DNA from: a virus
Taxonomy: Duplodnaviria; Heunggongvirae; Uroviricota; Caudoviricetes
Strand: one strand, 5' to 3'
DNA: 41,819 bases
Virus record (IMG/VR): IMGVR_UViG_2721755721_000002
Each line of letters begins with the position of its first letter. Position 1 is the first letter of the stretch. Under the pieces are notes generated by a model. That model made no database searches. It worked only from the letters and a program-made list of their open reading frames with translations, and was not told the DNA's origin. Below, in pieces: positions 3,758-34,711 of the stretch. The translations under genes were made by a program, and so were the position numbers.

Positions 3758-4033
3758 GTGGCAAAAGTTTTTACTCCCGAACTGCGGGAAGAAGTGAAGG
3801 CGCGCATTGTGGAACTGGTACGCAGAGATGGGCGAAAAACGCGTAAACAACTGGAAAATGAAACCGGGGCGACGAGACACCTGATAGAAGTTCTGGTGAA
3901 AGAGCTGGTAGTTAGTGGCGCAGTATATGGTTCAGGACATGGAATATTTCCTTCGGAGCAGGCTCGTAAGGACTGGGGAAAAGCCCGCAAAAAAAATGTC
4001 GAGAGCGGCAGTGAAAAAGAAGAGCGACCCTGA
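3758..4033 (+). CDS. Hypothetical small basic protein (91 aa, GTG start)
   Basis: ORF with AGGAGG-like RBS; no family recognised; overlaps the next ORF across an A8 tract. Confidence 0.35.
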   Translation: MAKVFTPELREEVKARIVELVRRDGRKTRKQLENETGATRHLIEVLVKELVVSGAVYGSGHGIFPSEQARKDWGKARKKNVESGSEKEERP

Positions 4034-4166
4034 CCTGATTTATTCATTGCTAGATGGCGAAATACGCCGTTACAACAGACGACAGAATATAATTTGTCGC
4101 GAGTGTCGTCAGAGCGAAGTTATGCAGCGCATACTGGAATTTTATCAGGGAAATGTTCGGTATTAA
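3996..4166 (+). CDS. Hypothetical small protein with CxxC (57 aa from ATG 3996; track ORF from 3915)
   Basis: MSRAAVKKKSDPDLIYSLLDGEIRRYNRRQNIICRECRQSEV...; ATG lies at the end of the A8 run 3989-3996. Confidence 0.3.
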   Translation: MSRAAVKKKSDPDLIYSLLDGEIRRYNRRQNIICRECRQSEVMQRILEFYQGNVRY

Positions 4167-4409
4167 TTGAAGTGACGAAATTAAAGAGCATTAGTTCAGA
4201 TATTAATTGACACTTCGATGGCACAGGCCCAGACCTAGTCTGGTTGTCAGCTTTGAGCTAGGTGAACGTTGGTATCGTTAGTTTGTATTAATCAACGGAG
4301 AATAGGCCAAATGACTTTTCTTTGCCTCTTTTAATTATAATTCAAGTTCAATTGATTACATTGAAGTACTAATGTGAGTCCGTCAAACAAATAGCTCAAG
4401 GAATAGGTC

Positions 4410-7208
4410 ATGTGGGGAAGTGAAAACAAACAAAATCTGGACGTACTGGATCCTGTGCAGTTGGTGCGTATCGAAGCGGTACACCGGGGGTTCCTTTACC
4501 AGCATCTTTACGCTGTAGGCTGCTTACTTTTGGCGCAGAGGGCAGCTATGGACTCAGTAACTGTCGAGCTTGATGAGGATATTGAGCTGAAATCCAAACA
4601 GGAACGTCTCTACATTCAGGTTAAAACCCGTTCAAAACCTATTATGCCCAACGATGTGTCGGGGGCTCTGGAGCGATTTGTAAAGCTCAGAAATGAGCAT
4701 ACTTCGGCAAACCGCGAAGGGGTGGCTTCTTTTGTGATTATTGTAAACCAGGCGCCTGGACCGCTGCTTCAGAAGATGATTGACGATAAAAAGCTTCCTT
4801 CTGATGTTCTTATTGTCTGGCCCCAGTCGACAGCTGGACGTCACCCGGCACTTCCGCCCGCATGGAGTACTCTGGCTGATGCGGCCACATGGTGTATCGC
4901 AGAAGCAGAAAAGCTGAAATTTTCACTATTGTCCCCAGAATCCTTGATTTGGAAGTTAGCAGGATTGGTTCAGCTTGCCGCCACCGGAGGCGATACCAAT
5001 GGACAACATACGTTTTTCACGGAAGAACTTACTGAACTATTTGAACAGTTGATCGTTCAGCTACAGGACTTTCCTGCACCACCAGCACTGTACCGCCCAC
5101 AGAACGAAGAACCTTCTCTCACATCTGGTGAGCGGATCCGTATCCTTTGTGGACTCTCAGGTGCAGGCAAGACAGCTTGGGCCGCACAGGCCGCATTACA
5201 CTCCACTGCACTTTGTGCTTATTACGACACCGGTGATCTTCCCGGTCCAGCTCTGGCCAGTACGCTGGTGCGCGAGATGGCTGCTAGATTTACAGCCCGT
5301 GACCAAGACGGTTTGCGCAGGATTTTGCTCCCCGGTGCCAGTGGTTTTGAGGCTCTTAGGAGTTTTGATACCTACCTGAAAGAGCAGGGTACCACCTTGG
5401 TGCTGGTTCTGGATAACGCCCATCGTGTACCTGCGGAAAATCTACTGGATGTTCTGAATGCAACTACACATATTCGTTTTGTGCTGTTGTGCCAGCCTCA
5501 CGAAAACGTTCGCGAACTGGAGGTCATGACGGGGCTACAGCGCGAGGGCCTGCAGGGATGGAATCTCGATACGGTAGCTGTCGTTGTAAACGATATCGGA
5601 GGATTTGCCACCGCTATGGGATACGAGCAGCTACGGGCTTACACTGGTGGTCTTCCCCTGTATGTAGAGAGCGCCGCAAAAATCGCCGTTTCTGATTATG
5701 AGCGTAATGTCGATGCTCTGTGTGCTGAACTCCAGCAACAAACCCATACTGCGGAAACCGCCCAAGAAATTATTCTGTCACGTGTATTTCAGGGATTTGA
5801 ATCACTACTTCAGAGCGCGCTGGCATTGTTCAGTCTCTCTGACGTAGGGCTGAGTCGCGAAGAGATTTCTACGCTCCTAATCAATTCGCTGAACATTTCA
5901 CCAAGCAGTGCTGCTTCTTTAATTAGGAAAATGCGCGCTACTGGCACTATTGAAATTTATGGAAACCAGACCCTGAAGGTACATGATGCTGTCAGGGGGC
6001 TAGGACTGCAACATCTGGAACTGATGGATCAGGGTATATCGAACAAAGCGCTACTAGCGCTGAAAGACCTTTTAGTTGAAAGTCTTCATAATACCCGCAA
6101 TACAAAACGGTTATCGTTGTTGACTCAACTTTATATTAAGCTCAATGATGTCACGACGTTGATCGAACTCTCAGGCCAAGAAATGTTTTATGAGATGGGC
6201 GTGACGGTCGACATTCTTGCAAGCTTGGAGCGTGCTGCAACATCGGACTTATTGGGACCTGTTCATAAATTCTGGGCATTGGATGGCCTTGTTTTCGTTG
6301 AGCTTAAAGACGGAATATCCGACCACATTGCTCAGAGGTTAAACATCATGGGAGCTTTACTTGCGGAGCACAAGTTCGGCTATCAAGAAGAGATGGCCTA
6401 TGCAATGAAACGAATGTTATTTTCGGCAGAAAGCAATGATGCACGAGAAGTTCAAAAGCTGGCACAGGAAGTCCGCCCCCAACTCCCAGATGAAGAACAT
6501 AAACGCATCTTTGACTACAACCATGCCATTGCACTCTGGAGATTAAAAAAACTCAAGGATGCTGAAACATTAAGCTGTAATGTTATACAAGGGTACTATT
6601 CTTTATTTGGTATCACACCTGCTGATGTCATAGGAAAAAACGCCGACGCATTATGGAAAACTATTAATCATTCCGAAAATATGCAGGAACACTTTAAACA
6701 TATGGCTGATGCTCTGGAGTTGCTGGCCAGAATTCGTGATGCGCAGGGAAAACTGTCACCATTACTGCGTATTCATTCGATGAAGTTCTACAATCTGGCC
6801 ATGGCCCCGGAATCCATGGTCAGGGTGGGCCAAGATCTGGCGGATGAGTTTGTTGCCATAAAGGATTACGACGGTGCCAAGGAAGTCATGGAGCAACATG
6901 TCCTGCCGGTTGTCAATGAGGCAGGTCTAGTACATCGACTGATTCAGGTTCGAAGCCAATACGCAGTCATATTAGCACTATCGGGTCAGCATAAAGCAGC
7001 TGATGTCGAAATGCAGCGCCTTGCTCCCTATATCGAAGGCCTCACAGGTGTACAGCGTCAAGAAATCCAAAATCAATCAAATTACATCGTACAGCTTGCC
7101 CATAAAGCAGCAAAGACTAAATTAACTGAAGTTTTTGGTGCGGTCGGCCGGAATGAACAATGCCCCTGTGGCTCGGGAATAAAGTACAAAAAATGTCACG
7201 GTGCCTGA
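4410..7208 (+). CDS. Large STAND-type P-loop NTPase with candidate N-terminal PD-(D/E)xK-like effector, C-terminal helical repeats and SEC-C zinc knuckle; putative single-gene antiphage protein
   Basis: 932-aa ORF; Walker A GLSGAGKT (aa 248-255), Walker B LVLVLDNAH (aa 330-338); N-terminal VELDEDIEL...YIQVKTRS; C-terminal CPCGSGIKYKKCHG; lower GC than flanking phage genes, AT-rich upstream. Confidence 0.75.
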   Translation: MWGSENKQNLDVLDPVQLVRIEAVHRGFLYQHLYAVGCLLLAQRAAMDSVTVELDEDIELKSKQERLYIQVKTRSKPIMPNDVSGALERFVKLRNEHTSANREGVASFVIIVNQAPGPLLQKMIDDKKLPSDVLIVWPQSTAGRHPALPPAWSTLADAATWCIAEAEKLKFSLLSPESLIWKLAGLVQLAATGGDTNGQHTFFTEELTELFEQLIVQLQDFPAPPALYRPQNEEPSLTSGERIRILCGLSGAGKTAWAAQAALHSTALCAYYDTGDLPGPALASTLVREMAARFTARDQDGLRRILLPGASGFEALRSFDTYLKEQGTTLVLVLDNAHRVPAENLLDVLNATTHIRFVLLCQPHENVRELEVMTGLQREGLQGWNLDTVAVVVNDIGGFATAMGYEQLRAYTGGLPLYVESAAKIAVSDYERNVDALCAELQQQTHTAETAQEIILSRVFQGFESLLQSALALFSLSDVGLSREEISTLLINSLNISPSSAASLIRKMRATGTIEIYGNQTLKVHDAVRGLGLQHLELMDQGISNKALLALKDLLVESLHNTRNTKRLSLLTQLYIKLNDVTTLIELSGQEMFYEMGVTVDILASLERAATSDLLGPVHKFWALDGLVFVELKDGISDHIAQRLNIMGALLAEHKFGYQEEMAYAMKRMLFSAESNDAREVQKLAQEVRPQLPDEEHKRIFDYNHAIALWRLKKLKDAETLSCNVIQGYYSLFGITPADVIGKNADALWKTINHSENMQEHFKHMADALELLARIRDAQGKLSPLLRIHSMKFYNLAMAPESMVRVGQDLADEFVAIKDYDGAKEVMEQHVLPVVNEAGLVHRLIQVRSQYAVILALSGQHKAADVEMQRLAPYIEGLTGVQRQEIQNQSNYIVQLAHKAAKTKLTEVFGAVGRNEQCPCGSGIKYKKCHGA

Positions 7209-7485
7209 GTCTTTGTACGACCATGCGGGCCTTATTGTCTTGCTATTGCTCTTATGGTTCGCCTTTCTGATTGATTTCATATTGGCGAGGTGACGGGAGT
7301 TAAGTAGAATGGCTGCGGGTGCTTGAGGCTATCTGTCTCAGGCATGAACACCAAAGGCAGATAGAGAAAAGCCCCAGTTAACATTACGCGTCCTGCAAGA
7401 CGCTTAACATTAATCTGAGGCTCAATCTATGAACGGCAAATCTAGGTTAGCCTCTTACGTGCCGAAAGGCAAGGAGAAGCAGGCT

Positions 7486-7641
7486 ATGAAGCAGCAAAAG
7501 GCGATGTTAATCGTCCTGATCGTCATCTGTTTAACCGTCATAGTGACGGCACTGGTAACGAGGAAAGACCTCTGCGAGGTACGAATCCGAACCGGCCAGA
7601 CGGAGGTCGCTGTCTTCACAGCTTACGAACCTGAGGAGTAA
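7486..7641 (+). CDS. hok: Hok/Gef-family type I toxin (51 aa)
   Basis: MKQQKAMLIVLIVICLTVIVTALVTRKDLCEVRIRTGQTEVAVFTAYEPEE is near-identical to HokD/RelF as I remember it; AAGGAG RBS; the track ORF 7429.. is an in-frame upstream extension. Confidence 0.85.
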   Translation: MKQQKAMLIVLIVICLTVIVTALVTRKDLCEVRIRTGQTEVAVFTAYEPEE

Positions 7642-7808: not shown

Positions 7809-8087
7809 ATGGCGCACGATACCAAATTACACAATTCTAATGATTCTGCTGTCTTTGCCAGCAGGTGCGGACGGCGTTTTCACGCATTCACATCAGACTG
7901 GTTCCAGCATCCTCCATGCACTGAAGAGCAGGCTGAATGGATAATTCAGTGTTACCGCAGGCGTGGATACGAGGTTAAGAAAGCTCTTAGTCTCGACTAT
8001 CGTCACTGGATAATCTCAGTCAGACTCCCTTACTCCGAACGCCCACCGCGTCCGTCCCGCACATTCCAGCAACGCATCTGGAGGTAA
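7809..8087 (+). CDS. Hypothetical protein (92 aa from ATG 7809)
   Basis: The track ORF 7680.. would run through the hok terminator hairpin, so the internal ATG is preferred; no family recognised. Confidence 0.35.
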   Translation: MAHDTKLHNSNDSAVFASRCGRRFHAFTSDWFQHPPCTEEQAEWIIQCYRRRGYEVKKALSLDYRHWIISVRLPYSERPPRPSRTFQQRIWR

Positions 8088-8088
8088 C

Positions 8089-9144
8089 GTGCGGGTATTA
8101 CTTCGACCTGTTCTGGTACCGGAACTCGGGCTGGTGATCGTTAAGCCGGGCCGTGAATCCATGCCGGTATTCCACAATACCCGGGTACTGGTGGAGCCGG
8201 AACCGAAAAGCATGCGTAATCTGCCGTCCGGGGTCGTTCCTGCCGTTCGCCAGCCGCTGGTGGAAGACAAAACATTGCTGCCGTTTTTCAGTAACGCACG
8301 GGTGATTCGTGCTGCTGGTGGTGCTGGTGCATTGTCTGACTGGCTGTTGCGCCATATTAAATCCTGCCAGTGGCCACACGGCGATTATCATCACAGCGAA
8401 ACCGTCATTCACCGTTATGGTACCGGCGCAATGGTGTTGTGCTGGCACTGCGACAACCAGTTGCGTGACCAGACCTCCGAATCACTCGGGCAACTTGCTC
8501 ATCAAAACCTGTCAGCATGGATGATTGACGTCATCGGTCACGCAATAAGCGGTACGCAGGAGCGTGAATTATCTCTGGCTGAATTATCCTGGTGGGCGGT
8601 CCGCAATCAGGTGGCGGACGCGCTACCGGAAGCGGTATTACGTCGTTCGCTGGGGTTGCGTGCGGAAAAAATCCGCTCAATGTACCGTGAAAGCGACATC
8701 GTGCCGGGAGAGCAGACCGCCACCAGCATACTGAAGCAGCGCACAAAAAATCTTGCGCCGATGCCTCACGCCCACCAGCAAAACCCGCCACAGGAAAAGA
8801 CGGTGGTAAGCATTGCCGTTGATCCGGAGTCACCGGCTCAGTATCTCCAGCGCCAGAAACCACAACGGGAAGAGATGCCCGTATACACGCGCTGGGTAAA
8901 AACGCAGAAATGCATGACGTGTGACAATCAGGCAGATGATCCGCATCACATCATTGGTCATGGACTAGGAGGGATGGGAACGAAGGCTGACGATTTGTTT
9001 GTTATTCCGCTGTGCCGTAAATGTCATAACGAACTGCACGCCGGGGTAAAAGATTTTGAAGAAAAACACGGCAGCCAGCTGTTGTTGCTGATTCGTTTTT
9101 TAATGCACGCGAGAAATTCGGGCGTCCTGAAGTGGAAAGCATAA
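8089..9144 (+). CDS. DUF968 / YdfU-like protein with C-terminal HNH-like zinc motif
   Basis: 351-aa ORF before rusA and Q, as ydfU is in Qin; C-terminal CMTCDNQADDPHHIIGH...CRKCHNELH resembles an HNH/zinc-finger signature. Confidence 0.5.
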   Translation: MRVLLRPVLVPELGLVIVKPGRESMPVFHNTRVLVEPEPKSMRNLPSGVVPAVRQPLVEDKTLLPFFSNARVIRAAGGAGALSDWLLRHIKSCQWPHGDYHHSETVIHRYGTGAMVLCWHCDNQLRDQTSESLGQLAHQNLSAWMIDVIGHAISGTQERELSLAELSWWAVRNQVADALPEAVLRRSLGLRAEKIRSMYRESDIVPGEQTATSILKQRTKNLAPMPHAHQQNPPQEKTVVSIAVDPESPAQYLQRQKPQREEMPVYTRWVKTQKCMTCDNQADDPHHIIGHGLGGMGTKADDLFVIPLCRKCHNELHAGVKDFEEKHGSQLLLLIRFLMHARNSGVLKWKA

Positions 9145-9510
9145 ATGACTGAACGCATAGAATTTGTTTTGCCTTACCCGCCAACGGTGAATACTTACTG
9201 GCGACGTCGTGGCAGCACATATTTTGTATCAAAAGTCGGTGAGCGTTATCGCCGTGATGTGGCACTAATTGTTCGCCAGCAGCGGTTGAAATTAAACCTG
9301 TCCGGAAGGCTGGCAATAAAAATTATTGCAGAGCCACCGGATAAGCGCCGTCGTGACCTGGACAATATCCTGAAGGCACCACTGGATGCACTGACGCATG
9401 CGGGGCTGCTCATAGACGACGAGCAGTTTGATGAAATCAATATTGTGCGCGGTCAGCTTGTTCCTGGTGGGCGGTTGGGGATAAAAATCACAGAACTGGG
9501 GTGCGCATGA
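9145..9510 (+). CDS. rusA: RusA-like Holliday junction resolvase
   Basis: 120 aa; VLPYPPTVNTYW...RRRDLDNILKAPLDALTHAGLLIDD parallels E. coli RusA from memory. Confidence 0.85.
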   Translation: MTERIEFVLPYPPTVNTYWRRRGSTYFVSKVGERYRRDVALIVRQQRLKLNLSGRLAIKIIAEPPDKRRRDLDNILKAPLDALTHAGLLIDDEQFDEINIVRGQLVPGGRLGIKITELGCA

Positions 9511-10196
9511 ATAACCAGTATTTACAGTTTGTGCGTGAGCAGCTCATTATCGCCACCGCTGATTTGAGTGGGGCAACAAAAGGTCAGCTTGAAGCCTGGC
9601 AGGAGAATGCCATGTTCGATACAGGGCGTTACAGGCGTAAAAAAATCCGGTACCGCGATGAAGTGACTGGAAAAATGATAACGCGGGATAATCCCCCAAT
9701 CCCGGGAAAGCAATCGCTGGCGAAGGGGACGTCAATTCCTCTGGTCAGTCCGATTGAGTTTTCGACATCATCGTGGCGGCGGGCTGTTCTGTCTCTTGAA
9801 GAACATCATAAAGCCTGGTTGTTGTGGTGTTACAGCGGGAGTATTTGTTGGGAATATCAGATCGCGATAACACAGTGGGCGTGGAATGAATTTAATACTC
9901 AATCCGGTACCAGAAAAATTGCAGGGAAAACGCAGGAACGCCTGAAAAAATTAATCTGGCTGGCGGCGCAGGCAGTAAAAGCAGAACTTTTTGGTGGGGA
10001 AGGTTATGAATACAAGGAGCTGGCATTACTGGTGGGAGTGACAACTAAAAACTGGTCCAAAACATTTACTCGTCACTGGGTTGCAATGAAACACATTTTT
10101 CACCGACTGGATAGTGAGGCTTTATTGTTTGTAATGAGAACGCGTTCAAAACAAAAGGCGGCATTTTCAAAGCAAAGTGTTGCAAAAGTAGATTGA
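9507..10196 (+). CDS. Late-gene antiterminator Q-like protein
   Basis: 229-aa ORF overlapping the rusA stop (ATGA), directly upstream of a strong terminator and the tRNA/late region; family assignment is by position. Confidence 0.55.
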   Translation: MNNQYLQFVREQLIIATADLSGATKGQLEAWQENAMFDTGRYRRKKIRYRDEVTGKMITRDNPPIPGKQSLAKGTSIPLVSPIEFSTSSWRRAVLSLEEHHKAWLLWCYSGSICWEYQIAITQWAWNEFNTQSGTRKIAGKTQERLKKLIWLAAQAVKAELFGGEGYEYKELALLVGVTTKNWSKTFTRHWVAMKHIFHRLDSEALLFVMRTRSKQKAAFSKQSVAKVD

Positions 10197-10406: not shown

Positions 10407-10482
10407 GGCCCTTTAGCTCAGTGGTGAGAGCGAGCGACTCATAATCGCCAGGCCGCTGGTTCAAATCCAGCAAGGGCCACCA
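10407..10482 (+). tRNA. tRNA with CAU anticodon (Ile2-lysidine or Met type), encoded CCA
   Basis: Cloverleaf by hand: acceptor GGCCCTT/AAGGGCC, D-stem GCTC/GAGC, anticodon loop CTCATAA, T-arm GCTGG-TTCAAAT-CCAGC. Confidence 0.8.
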
Positions 10483-10489
10483 TCACATA

Positions 10490-10566
10490 CCGCCATTAGC
10501 TCATCGGGATAGAACGCCAGCCTTCGAAGCTGGTTTCGCGGGGTTCGAGTCTCCGATGGCGGTCCA
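10490..10566 (+). tRNA. tRNA-Arg (anticodon UCG), encoded CCA
   Basis: Acceptor CCGCCAT/ATGGCGG, anticodon arm CCAGC-CTTCGAA-GCTGG, T-arm CGGGG-TTCGAGT-CTCCG. Confidence 0.7.
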
Positions 10567-10579
10567 TTATCGGTATTCT

Positions 10580-10656
10580 GCGTTTTTAGCTCAGCCGGAC
10601 AGAGCAATTGCCTTCTAAGCAATCGGTCACTGGTTCGAACCCAGTACAACGCACCA
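10580..10656 (+). tRNA. tRNA-Arg (anticodon UCU), encoded CCA
   Basis: Anticodon arm ATTGC-CTTCTAA-GCAAT, T-arm ACTGG-TTCGAAC-CCAGT, D-stem GCTC/GAGC; one acceptor-stem mismatch. Confidence 0.7.
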
Positions 10657-33217: not shown

Positions 33218-33336
33218 AAGCGAAAAAATCCCGCAGTGCTCACGGACAGGAACTGCGGGAGCGTTACGAAGATTGAGTGTAAGGAATTATTCTTATGTCA
33301 CGACAAAAACATTAACTCAGAGGTAATGACTCCAAC

Positions 33337-33702
33337 TTATTGATAGTGTTTTATGTTCAGATAATGCCCGATGACTTTGTCATGCAGCTCCACCGATTTT
33401 GAGAACGACAGCGACTTCCGTCCCAGCCGTGCCAGGTGCTGCCTCAGATTCAGGTTATGCCGCTCAATTCGCTGAGTGTAACGCTTGCTGATTACGTGCA
33501 GCTTTCCCTTCAGGCGGGATTCATACAGCGGCCAGCCATCCGTCATCCATATCACCACGTCAAAGGGTGACAGCAGGCTCATAAGAAGCCCCAGCGTCGC
33601 CATCGTGCGTTCACCGAATACGTGCGCAACAACCGTCTTCCGGAGCCTGTCATACGCGTAAAACAGCCAGCGCTGGCGCGATTTAGCCCCGACTAGCCCC
33701 AC
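33337..33702 (-). CDS. insB: IS1 InsB transposase reading frame
   Basis: [34 protein letters not shown]...[42 protein letters not shown] matches IS1 InsB. Confidence 0.9.
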
Positions 33703-33757
33703 TGTTCGTCCATTTCCGCGCAGACGATGACGTCACTGCCCGGCTGTATGCGCGAGG

Positions 33758-34033
33758 TTACCGACTGCGGCCTGAGTTTTTTAAGTGACGTAAAATCGTG
33801 TTGAGGCCAACGCCCATAATGCGGGCTGTTGCCCGGCATCCAACGCCATTCATGGCCATATCAATGATTTTCTGGTGCGTACCGGGCTGAGAAGCGGTGT
33901 AAGTGAACTGCAGTTGCCATGTTTTACGGCAGTGAGAGCAGAGATAGCGCTGATGTCCGGCAGTGCTTTTGCCGTTACGCACCACCCCGTCAGTAGCTGA
34001 ACAGGAGGGACAGCTGATAGAAACAGAAGCCAC
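33758..34033 (-). CDS. insA: IS1 InsA
   Basis: (M)[50 protein letters not shown]... matches IS1 InsA; GTG start. Confidence 0.9.
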
Positions 34034-34154
34034 AGGAGCACCTCAAAAACACCATCATACACTAAATCAGTAAGTTGGCAGCATCACCTAACTCAGAGAG
34101 GGAGGATGTGCCGTTCTTTTCAGGGAGAAAGGATTTATCGTCCTGAGGAATAAA

Positions 34155-34183: not shown

Positions 34184-34711
34184 TTATTGAATGATGCCGC
34201 AGGCCATTCTCGCACCACCACCGCCCAGGGGCTCCGGATGGTCATGATGGTTATCACCGCCAGCATGAAGCATGAGAGAACGCCCTTTAATCTCTTTTAA
34301 TGAGTTCAGTCTCGGGGCCAGGACCGGGTAGTTCGCTTTTCCGTCATGCGTCACGAACAGCGCAGGGAGGTCGCCCAGGTGTCCATCCGGAGACCAGGGG
34401 CCAAGATGTTTGCCGGTGTTTTTCGGGTCAAAGTGACCGCCAGCCGATAATGCTGCGACCGGTTTTCCGTCTTTCAGTGCCGGGGCGCAATTTCCTTTTT
34501 CGTGCACATGAAAACCATGAATGCCTTCAGACAGAGAGTGAAGGGCTGGTGTGAACAGCAGACCGTAGGGGGTCTCCTGAATGGTTATTTTTCCAATGCT
34601 GACTTCTTTTCCGTCAGCACTGACAAGGTTCATTGGGACTTCCTGTTCTGCTGCGTATCCGCATGATGCTGCTGTCAGCATGGCAATGGCAGCAATGATT
34701 TTACATTTCAT
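34184..34711 (-). CDS. sodC: Periplasmic Cu,Zn superoxide dismutase (SodC), prophage moron
   Basis: [20 protein letters not shown] signal peptide; [29 protein letters not shown] are Cu,Zn-SOD signatures. The track ORF runs on to 35218 antisense to J; the real start is the internal ATG. Confidence 0.85.

Follow-up and report, generated by a model that had tools for sequence, protein, structure and literature searches.

Several antiviral STAND proteins (Avs) that are equipped with a Cap4 effector, among them SeAvs3 (PDB 8DGC) and SeAvs7 (PDB 9N00/9YIX), combine a Cap4 nuclease, a STAND NTPase and a TPR-like sensor in a single polypeptide, and both mobile elements and defence islands harbour their genes (Gao et al. 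2022; Lee et al. 2026, bioRxiv 10.64898/2026.01.04.697583). The same architecture and the same kind of carriage are found in a 932-aa protein encoded by the IMG/VR virus record IMGVR_UViG_2721755721_000002, a stretch of 41,819 nucleotides of Caudoviricetes DNA which is referred to here, at its full length, as the window. Compared with SeAvs3 and SeAvs7 the window protein is much shorter, with a sensor of about 370 aa, and it adds a SecA-like zinc tail. Very probably it is a pattern-recognition receptor of the Avs, bacterial NLR-like kind which acts against phages as a single protein. Its gene is accessory cargo of an E. coli lambdoid prophage, whose lysogen it would protect from other phages. 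This reading is carried by the identities of the domains, by invariant catalytic and nucleotide-binding residues, by similarity to the STAND-TPR fold and by a mobile, defence-rich context.

The complete open reading frame (ORF) and all motifs quoted in the original prediction, which had been made from the DNA letters without database searches, were recovered in their places, including VELDEDIEL (aa 52-60 of the translation), YIQVKTRS (aa 68-75) and the tail CPCGSGIKYKKCHG (aa 918-931). Per-domain profile searches, which that prediction had proposed as a check, place three of the four modules, namely the nuclease, the NTPase and SEC-C, above the curated Pfam cutoffs. Cap4_nuclease (PF14130) scores 27.1 bits over aa 25-77 (cutoff 26.2), AAA_22 scores 32.6 bits over aa 239-364 (cutoff 27), accompanied by a weaker match to AAA_16, and SEC-C scores 38.8 bits over aa 914-931 (cutoff 20.4, E 8e-10). 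The N-terminus, originally described as nuclease-like, is of the Cap4/DUF4297 type according to Pfam, PADLOC and Foldseek alike, and its D...QxK motif is the Cap4/DUF4297/LmuA/HamA variant of PD-(D/E)xK; the defence libraries give no match to the region outside this group. Cap4 (CBASS), LmuA (Lamassu), HamA (Hachiman) and DUF4297 (HerA-DUF4297) have the same N-terminal nuclease fold and motif but are controlled from the same operon by SAVED and cyclic oligonucleotides, an SMC protein, a helicase or HerA, whereas the nuclease of the window protein is fused to a STAND NTPase. In Pfam searches the 932-aa protein shows no SAVED domain and no helix-turn-helix (HTH) or other transcription output domain.

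The protein is far more than a chance ORF, and the family to which it belongs is large and uniform in length. A word-indexed search recovered 933 homologues, the best 120 of which are nearly all 927-944 aa long and come from Serratia, Providencia, Klebsiella, Yersinia, Vibrio, Shewanella, Aeromonas, Alteromonas, Pseudomonas and Variovorax, and HMMER, run exhaustively against representatives of clusters at 50% identity, gave 735 matches, 287 of them at E <=1e-30. Relatives with identities down to 29% are still about 900-960 aa long and align from residue ~10 to residue ~931; judged from these alignments, the family is old and its architecture is fixed. Conservation was followed in an alignment of the query and 103 full-length cluster representatives at 29-47% identity, 104 sequences in all. 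Within the nuclease D57, Q70 and K72 are each found in 104/104 sequences, D55 in 103/104 and E53 in 102/104, and the Walker A residues G251, G253 and K254 are likewise without exception (104/104 each). The Walker B motif has D335 in 104/104 sequences and N336 in 94/104, with D at the latter position in the remainder. P416 of the GxP motif is invariant (104/104) and is flanked by G414 (96/104) and L417 (97/104), while in the winged helix H525 is kept in 99/104 and D526 in 94/104 sequences. STAND NTPases (NB-ARC/NACHT proteins) are typically recognised by a GxP motif and by a histidine in the winged helix. Conservation to this degree shows the predicted nuclease site and the predicted STAND nucleotide switch to be intact and under selection. 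Across the 103 representatives the sensor is the least conserved part of the protein.

The predicted structure is in line with this assignment. An AlphaFold2 model built from a 25-sequence alignment has a mean predicted local distance difference test (pLDDT) score of 78.8, with values of ~80-90 over aa 30-170. It begins with an alpha/beta domain at the N-terminus, from which a linker of poor order (aa ~214-240) leads to a Rossmann-like nucleotide-binding domain (NBD), followed by a helical domain (HD), a winged-helix domain (WHD) with a beta-hairpin at aa 514-524 (E514-517/E521-524) and an uninterrupted array of helical hairpins from aa ~541 to 909, which is TPR-like by structural comparison. 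H525-D526 is located directly behind the beta-hairpin and is probably equivalent to the MHD motif of NLRs; the histidine would contact the nucleotide. The top match of the model in Foldseek is the STAND-TPR protein 6mfv_A (PH0952; E 3e-12, 731 columns, TM score on the target 0.54), and further matches include a wheat NLR resistosome, Cdc6, HamA (8zue_A) and Cap4 (6wan), the last two being matched by the N-terminal domain, for which the structural comparison had been suggested. A search of the PDB with the family profile (hmmsearch) also retrieves PH0952 (6mfv, E 5.8e-6) over profile positions 235-542, which correspond to NBD, HD and WHD. PH0952 of Pyrococcus horikoshii, and also MalT (8BOB), are the best solved relatives by structure and profile for the NBD-HD-WHD-TPR portion; identity to PH0952 is only ~14%, and its matches leave the nuclease domain and the SEC-C tail uncovered.

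The protein possesses the features of the STAND superfamily, with Walker A and B motifs, a GxP motif, a winged-helix histidine and similarity of the NBD-HD-WHD portion to solved STANDs. It also has the broad Avs layout, for which a repeat sensor of at least 400 aa beyond the NTPase was required and the NTPase bounds followed Lee et al. 2026: an effector at aa ~13-213, the NTPase at aa 227-435 and then 497 aa, of which ~370 are TPR-like. The arrangement of effector, STAND NTPase and repeat sensor which had been read from the translation is upheld by Pfam, by AlphaFold2 and Foldseek and by the profile match to 6mfv. The suggested antiphage role is probable and is supported by the architecture, the conserved residues and the defence-rich mobile context.

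The mechanism proposed here, in which a phage protein acts as trigger and the receptor oligomerises, cuts DNA and aborts the infection, is drawn by analogy from Avs3, Avs4 and Avs7 (SeAvs3, EcAvs4 and SeAvs7; Gao et al. 2022; Lee et al. 2026). In the resting cell the protein would be an ADP-bound, autoinhibited monomer. The TPR-like region (aa ~541-909) would bind a protein made by the infecting phage, and this binding would open the module of NBD, HD and WHD (aa ~241-538), leading to the exchange of ADP for ATP and to oligomerisation. The oligomer would then gather the N-terminal Cap4-type PD-(D/E)xK domains into an active, non-specific nuclease of double-stranded DNA, and the destruction of both phage and host DNA would abort the infection. 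The SecA-like metal-binding knuckle, which sits on a flexible linker, may be an accessory that most likely either anchors the protein to SecB or the ribosome as its partner in the host or helps to keep it autoinhibited. Since the gene is carried by a lambdoid prophage, its product may target competing temperate phages. According to Lee et al. 2026, both SeAvs7 and SeAvs3, which are Cap4-STAND-TPR proteins, act by the sensor-triggered scheme proposed here.

PADLOC v2, NCBIfam and PHROGs give domain-level matches only and no full-length named defence family, which in the case of PADLOC answers a check that had been proposed for the protein. The PADLOC v2 matches are to LmuA (aa 26-119 at 5e-7), to the tails of E2 and PDC-S12, to DUF4297 and to HamA, at E-values up to 1. 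None of the PADLOC v2 models of Avs1-5 (AVAST types I-V) matches, and as modelled there the protein belongs to none of these types; the original prediction had described it as far shorter than Avs1-4. When the PDB is searched by sequence and by profile, only SecA/YchJ tails and PH0952 match, and no solved Avs3, Avs4 or Avs7 chain is found in these searches or among the Foldseek top 50. The description of the gene as undescribed, by contrast, has to be given up. Lee et al. 2026 list the near-identical E. coli protein WP_021564393.1 in their Table S1 as seed 193 with an NTPase at aa 227-435, and this NTPase differs from aa 227-435 of the window protein at two residues. The work is a census of defence-associated STANDs with 656 seeds, which comprise known or predicted defence STANDs, candidates located near defence genes and BLAST finds with Cap4, Mrr, Trypco2 or MBL effectors; it names Avs7-24 and tests 30 further sensor clusters with a focus on Enterobacteriaceae. 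Since a near-identical protein is a census seed, the family is already catalogued as a candidate defence STAND, and there is a real chance that it has already been named there. Bechon et al. 2024 deals with Avs2 only. Systems of this type, the logic by which they work and even the family itself are already on record in the literature and will not surprise specialists; if confirmed, the protein would be a further Cap4-STAND-TPR receptor of compact size (932 aa) among the growing number of bacterial NLR-like sensors.

Homologues in other genera are found close to known defence genes. In Vibrio cholerae the neighbours are GajA/GajB (Gabija), AbiH and a PIN_12 protein, on an element with an integrase and umuDC. 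The homologue of Yersinia enterocolitica is located next to Gabija, that of Pseudomonas next to AbiH, and that of Variovorax next to DruA and a DruE-like helicase (Druantia genes). As the neighbours change from locus to locus, the protein appears to act as a single gene. Relatives are further present on 54 plasmid records, 21 of which are typed as conjugative and some of which are large plasmids from E. coli, Klebsiella and Pseudomonas, and in two uncultured phage contigs. The V. cholerae island (GCA_001402285.1, locus L009, 3363-9778 and 15984-18263) is dense and also contains an AAA_13 ATPase and several large genes without an assignment (536 and 1104 aa), and it may be a hotspot of an integrative and conjugative element with more uncharacterised defence genes.

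Within E. coli the gene is present in 16/5426 complete genomes, while the stretch of the replication module upstream of it is matched in 3431, and among the gene-carrying genomes listed (16 carriers in all) the upstream region shows an identity of 99% or more. In the window it is bordered by DUF977 and hokD, with the replisome-organizer and DUF977 genes upstream. Homology to six sister prophages that do not have the gene ends at 4158 or 4258 and restarts at 7232 or ~7300, and because it breaks there the gene and ~150 bp of AT-rich upstream DNA are regarded as a discrete cargo (~4259-7231). Its promoter presumably lies within 4259-4409; a scan for consensus promoters and terminators placed no site in this stretch and no convincing one on either side of the gene. 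The original prediction had seen here a block of lower GC content with an AT-rich upstream region, and this is true of the 250 bp ahead of the gene (GC 0.42-0.43) and of its 3' half (GC 0.43-0.45) but not of the 5' half, where GC is 0.49-0.53, the same as in the surroundings.

The slot between DUF977 and hokD is filled in sister prophages by small nin-like ORFs, by an IS3 element or by defence-type genes, the latter being either PD-T7-1 (E 9e-157) or cll-like and PD-Lambda-2_C/beta-like genes (E 2e-28 and 2e-41). Equivalents of window positions 4259-7231 are located at 8148-9497 on the minus strand of sister locus L007 and at 7942-9577 of sister locus L004. This slot of Rac/Qin-like lambdoid prophages looks like an unexploited defence hotspot, and it can be mined for further defence genes, with PD-T7-1 and the cll/beta-like pair at the same place. 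L007 additionally has a fragment of an integrase and two genes of 313 and 326 aa that are unassigned. A helicase-loader gene had been expected at the site in the original prediction; the site is instead a place of variable cargo in the sister prophages. Replacement of a helicase loader by the gene is ruled out by the six sister prophages, in which the variable slot holds unrelated cargo.

Several points weigh against an antiphage receptor of the Avs kind. The protein has no known phage trigger, and the literature searched contains no experiment on it or a close homologue. At 932 aa the protein has a smaller sensor than Avs1-4, the Cap4_nuclease score in Pfam barely exceeds its cutoff, and the defence-island context comes from a sample of five loci. 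Given that neither a full-length PADLOC v2 model nor, by profile or in the Foldseek top 50, a solved Avs3, Avs4 or Avs7 chain is matched, the analogy spans distinct STAND clades. The best defence-library matches of the nuclease domain are LmuA, DUF4297 and HamA, the last of which is also found in Foldseek, and these would also suit a nuclease-NTPase which responds to nucleic acid or to the state of the nucleotides instead of to a protein of the phage, like Hachiman, Lamassu, Gabija and HerA-DUF4297. The ATPase would then restrain the Cap4/DUF4297-like nuclease until aberrant DNA or ATP depletion is encountered, with the TPR array serving only in self-assembly, and several recent papers describe such a control logic as common to nuclease-NTPase systems. 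However, the ATPase is a STAND with a GxP motif, a winged-helix histidine and a large TPR array, and not an SMC protein, a helicase or HerA. Neither a LmuB SMC protein nor a HamB helicase, HerA or a CD-NTase with a SAVED partner is encoded adjacent to the gene in the window or in five other loci, and all characterised Cap4-STAND-TPR proteins sense a protein, so that sensing of this kind appears improbable.

The location of the gene directly behind the replisome-organizer and DUF977 genes, together with AAA_22 and Cdc6/ORC folds among its matches, might also suggest a role in the prophage life cycle, either as a replication or partition ATPase (an ORC/Cdc6-like initiator or loader) or in lineage-specific superinfection exclusion or addiction. 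Such a role is very unlikely: sister prophages fill the variable slot with cargo that has no relation to the gene, known defence genes among it, and only 16 of the 5426 complete E. coli genomes have the gene, against 3431 with a match to the upstream replication stretch. Its homologues in other genera are located in defence islands and on plasmids and not in prophage replication modules, and a loader would not be expected to have an invariant nuclease active site. A non-immune signalling STAND of the MalT/AfsR/PH0952 type, which responds to a cellular metabolite and whose N-terminal domain binds DNA instead of cutting it, would agree with the fact that PH0952, MalT and AfsR, and not Avs proteins, are the closest solved relatives by profile and fold. 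MalT is a transcription regulator and not an immune protein. The window protein, however, lacks an HTH or comparable output domain, its PD-(D/E)xK catalytic triad is strictly conserved, and its context is mobile and defence-rich and not operonic with metabolic genes, which leaves hardly any likelihood for signalling of this type.

The SecA-like tail is the sole feature of the putative antiphage receptor with the potential for new insight. The segment CPCGSGIKYKKCH (aa 918-930) fits the C-x-C-x8-C-[HC] SEC-C motif with Gly-Ser-Gly and Tyr, and the longer tail VGRNEQCPCGSGIKYKKCHG is identical to the SecA tail peptide 1sx0 at 16/20 positions, including the C-x-C...C-H ligands, Ser and Tyr. In the profile search of the PDB the family profile matches the tails of SecA and YchJ at ~1e-9. 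C918, C920, S922 and C929 are invariant in 61 tail-bearing members, and the linker ahead of the tail is short, variable and of low confidence in the AlphaFold2 model, an arrangement that resembles the flexible linker and metal-binding domain of SecA. The tail is present in 64/103 full-length representatives (~62%), from which it is concluded to be ancestral, with repeated losses. The SEC-C motif is held in common with the SecA metal-binding domain and with YchJ/YecA; apart from it, the window protein bears no relation to SecA, Rugutis or DS-23.

SEC-C motifs have been described in other antiphage proteins. Rugutis is a validated antiphage protein with a SEC-C motif (PMC11381338), and DS-23 is a validated antiphage protein of 719 aa that combines an Mrr/Upx-type nuclease with a SEC-C zinc finger and for which no ATPase domain is recorded (PMC13092281). 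The PADLOC models PDC-S12 and E2 share a SEC-C-type tail with the window protein. The novelty that had been attached to the tail is thereby reduced to its combination with a STAND: SEC-C as such is known from Rugutis, DS-23, PDC-S12 and E2, while no report of it on a STAND was found in the literature searched. The accessible text of Lee et al. 2026 contains 0 mentions of the tail, and neither Kaur et al. 2020 nor the 2026 domain-centric screen mentions SEC-C or Cap4-STAND.

The tail domain of SecA is known to bind SecB and ribosomes (bioRxiv 10.1101/613315). EF-Tu is described as a structural co-factor of SeAvs7 (Lee et al. 2026), and DnaJ is reported to mediate sensing by bNACHT25. By analogy with these two cases the tail might recruit SecB or the ribosome as a structural co-factor or as a guarded target, a tentative idea which we consider rather unlikely but which is directly testable. 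If true, the family would represent STAND receptors that monitor or exploit the machinery of protein export or of translation during infection, and recruitment of a host factor would explain why SEC-C recurs in the unrelated Rugutis, DS-23 and PDC-S12.

Table 1. Features of the cargo gene and its upstream region (positions are those of the window; aa, residues of the 932-aa protein)
Feature	Position	Strand	Remarks
Complete ORF	4410..7208	+	932 codons, ATG start, then stop
Cargo-specific AT-rich upstream region	4259..4409	+	Moves together with the gene; presumed promoter and ribosome-binding site
Predicted ribosome-binding site AAGGAATAGG	3 nt 5' of the ATG at 4410	+	
Cap4/DUF4297-type PD-(D/E)xK nuclease domain, predicted effector	4446..5048	+	aa ~13-213, N-terminal
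Nuclease catalytic motif E53-x-D55-E56-D57 ... Q70-V-K72	4566..4625	+	From the conservation alignment
STAND NTPase module (nucleotide-binding, helical and winged-helix domains)	5130..6023	+	aa ~241-538
Walker A GLSGAGKT, K254	5151..5174	+	aa 248-255
Walker B LVLVLDNAH, D335-N336	5397..5423	+	aa 330-338
GxP motif GGLPL, STAND helical domain	5646..5660	+	aa 413-417
H525-D526 (KVHDAVR), winged-helix domain	5982..5987	+	Placed like the NLR 'MHD' histidine
All-helical TPR-like repeats, predicted sensor	6030..7136	+	aa ~541-909, ~370 aa
SecA-like metal-binding tail VGRNEQCPCGSGIKYKKCHG	7143..7202	+	aa 912-931, behind a short variable linker

The regions on both sides of the cargo show some peculiarities of their own. 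The DUF977 gene (3758-4166, plus strand) is frameshifted, with a stop at ~4031 and continuation in the +1 frame; in the reference strain DUF977 is flagged as a pseudogene in RefSeq and the integrase is frameshifted as well. Directly downstream of the cargo lies the type I toxin gene hokD (7486-7641, plus strand), and the conserved stretch upstream of it (~7232-7480) matches the hok/sok region of Stx phages such as 933W, which contains the sokW antisense RNA.

Further along the prophage, three tRNA genes are located downstream of the Q antiterminator gene (10407-10656, plus strand), with a CAT anticodon, Arg-TCG and Arg-TCT. The CAT-anticodon tRNA is called Met by ARAGORN and Ile in RefSeq and is therefore probably of the lysidine-modified Ile2 type. 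The tRNA set varies among the sister prophages, one of which (L002) has Ile, Lys, Thr and Gly. An insertion of 766 bp at ~33323-34088, which is not in the reference prophage, carries IS1 InsA/InsB-like ORFs on the minus strand and is placed between a tail assembly gene and the region of sodC and the host-specificity gene J. The sodC gene, which encodes a periplasmic Cu/Zn superoxide dismutase, is found at ~34184-34711 on the minus strand towards the late end of the prophage. The window ends with the type III effector gene nleB2 (40839-41819, plus strand), beyond which the reference genome has fragments of nleC and nleH. The virulence cargo formed by sodC and nleB2 points to a host of the enteropathogenic or enterohaemorrhagic E. 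coli (EPEC/EHEC) type.

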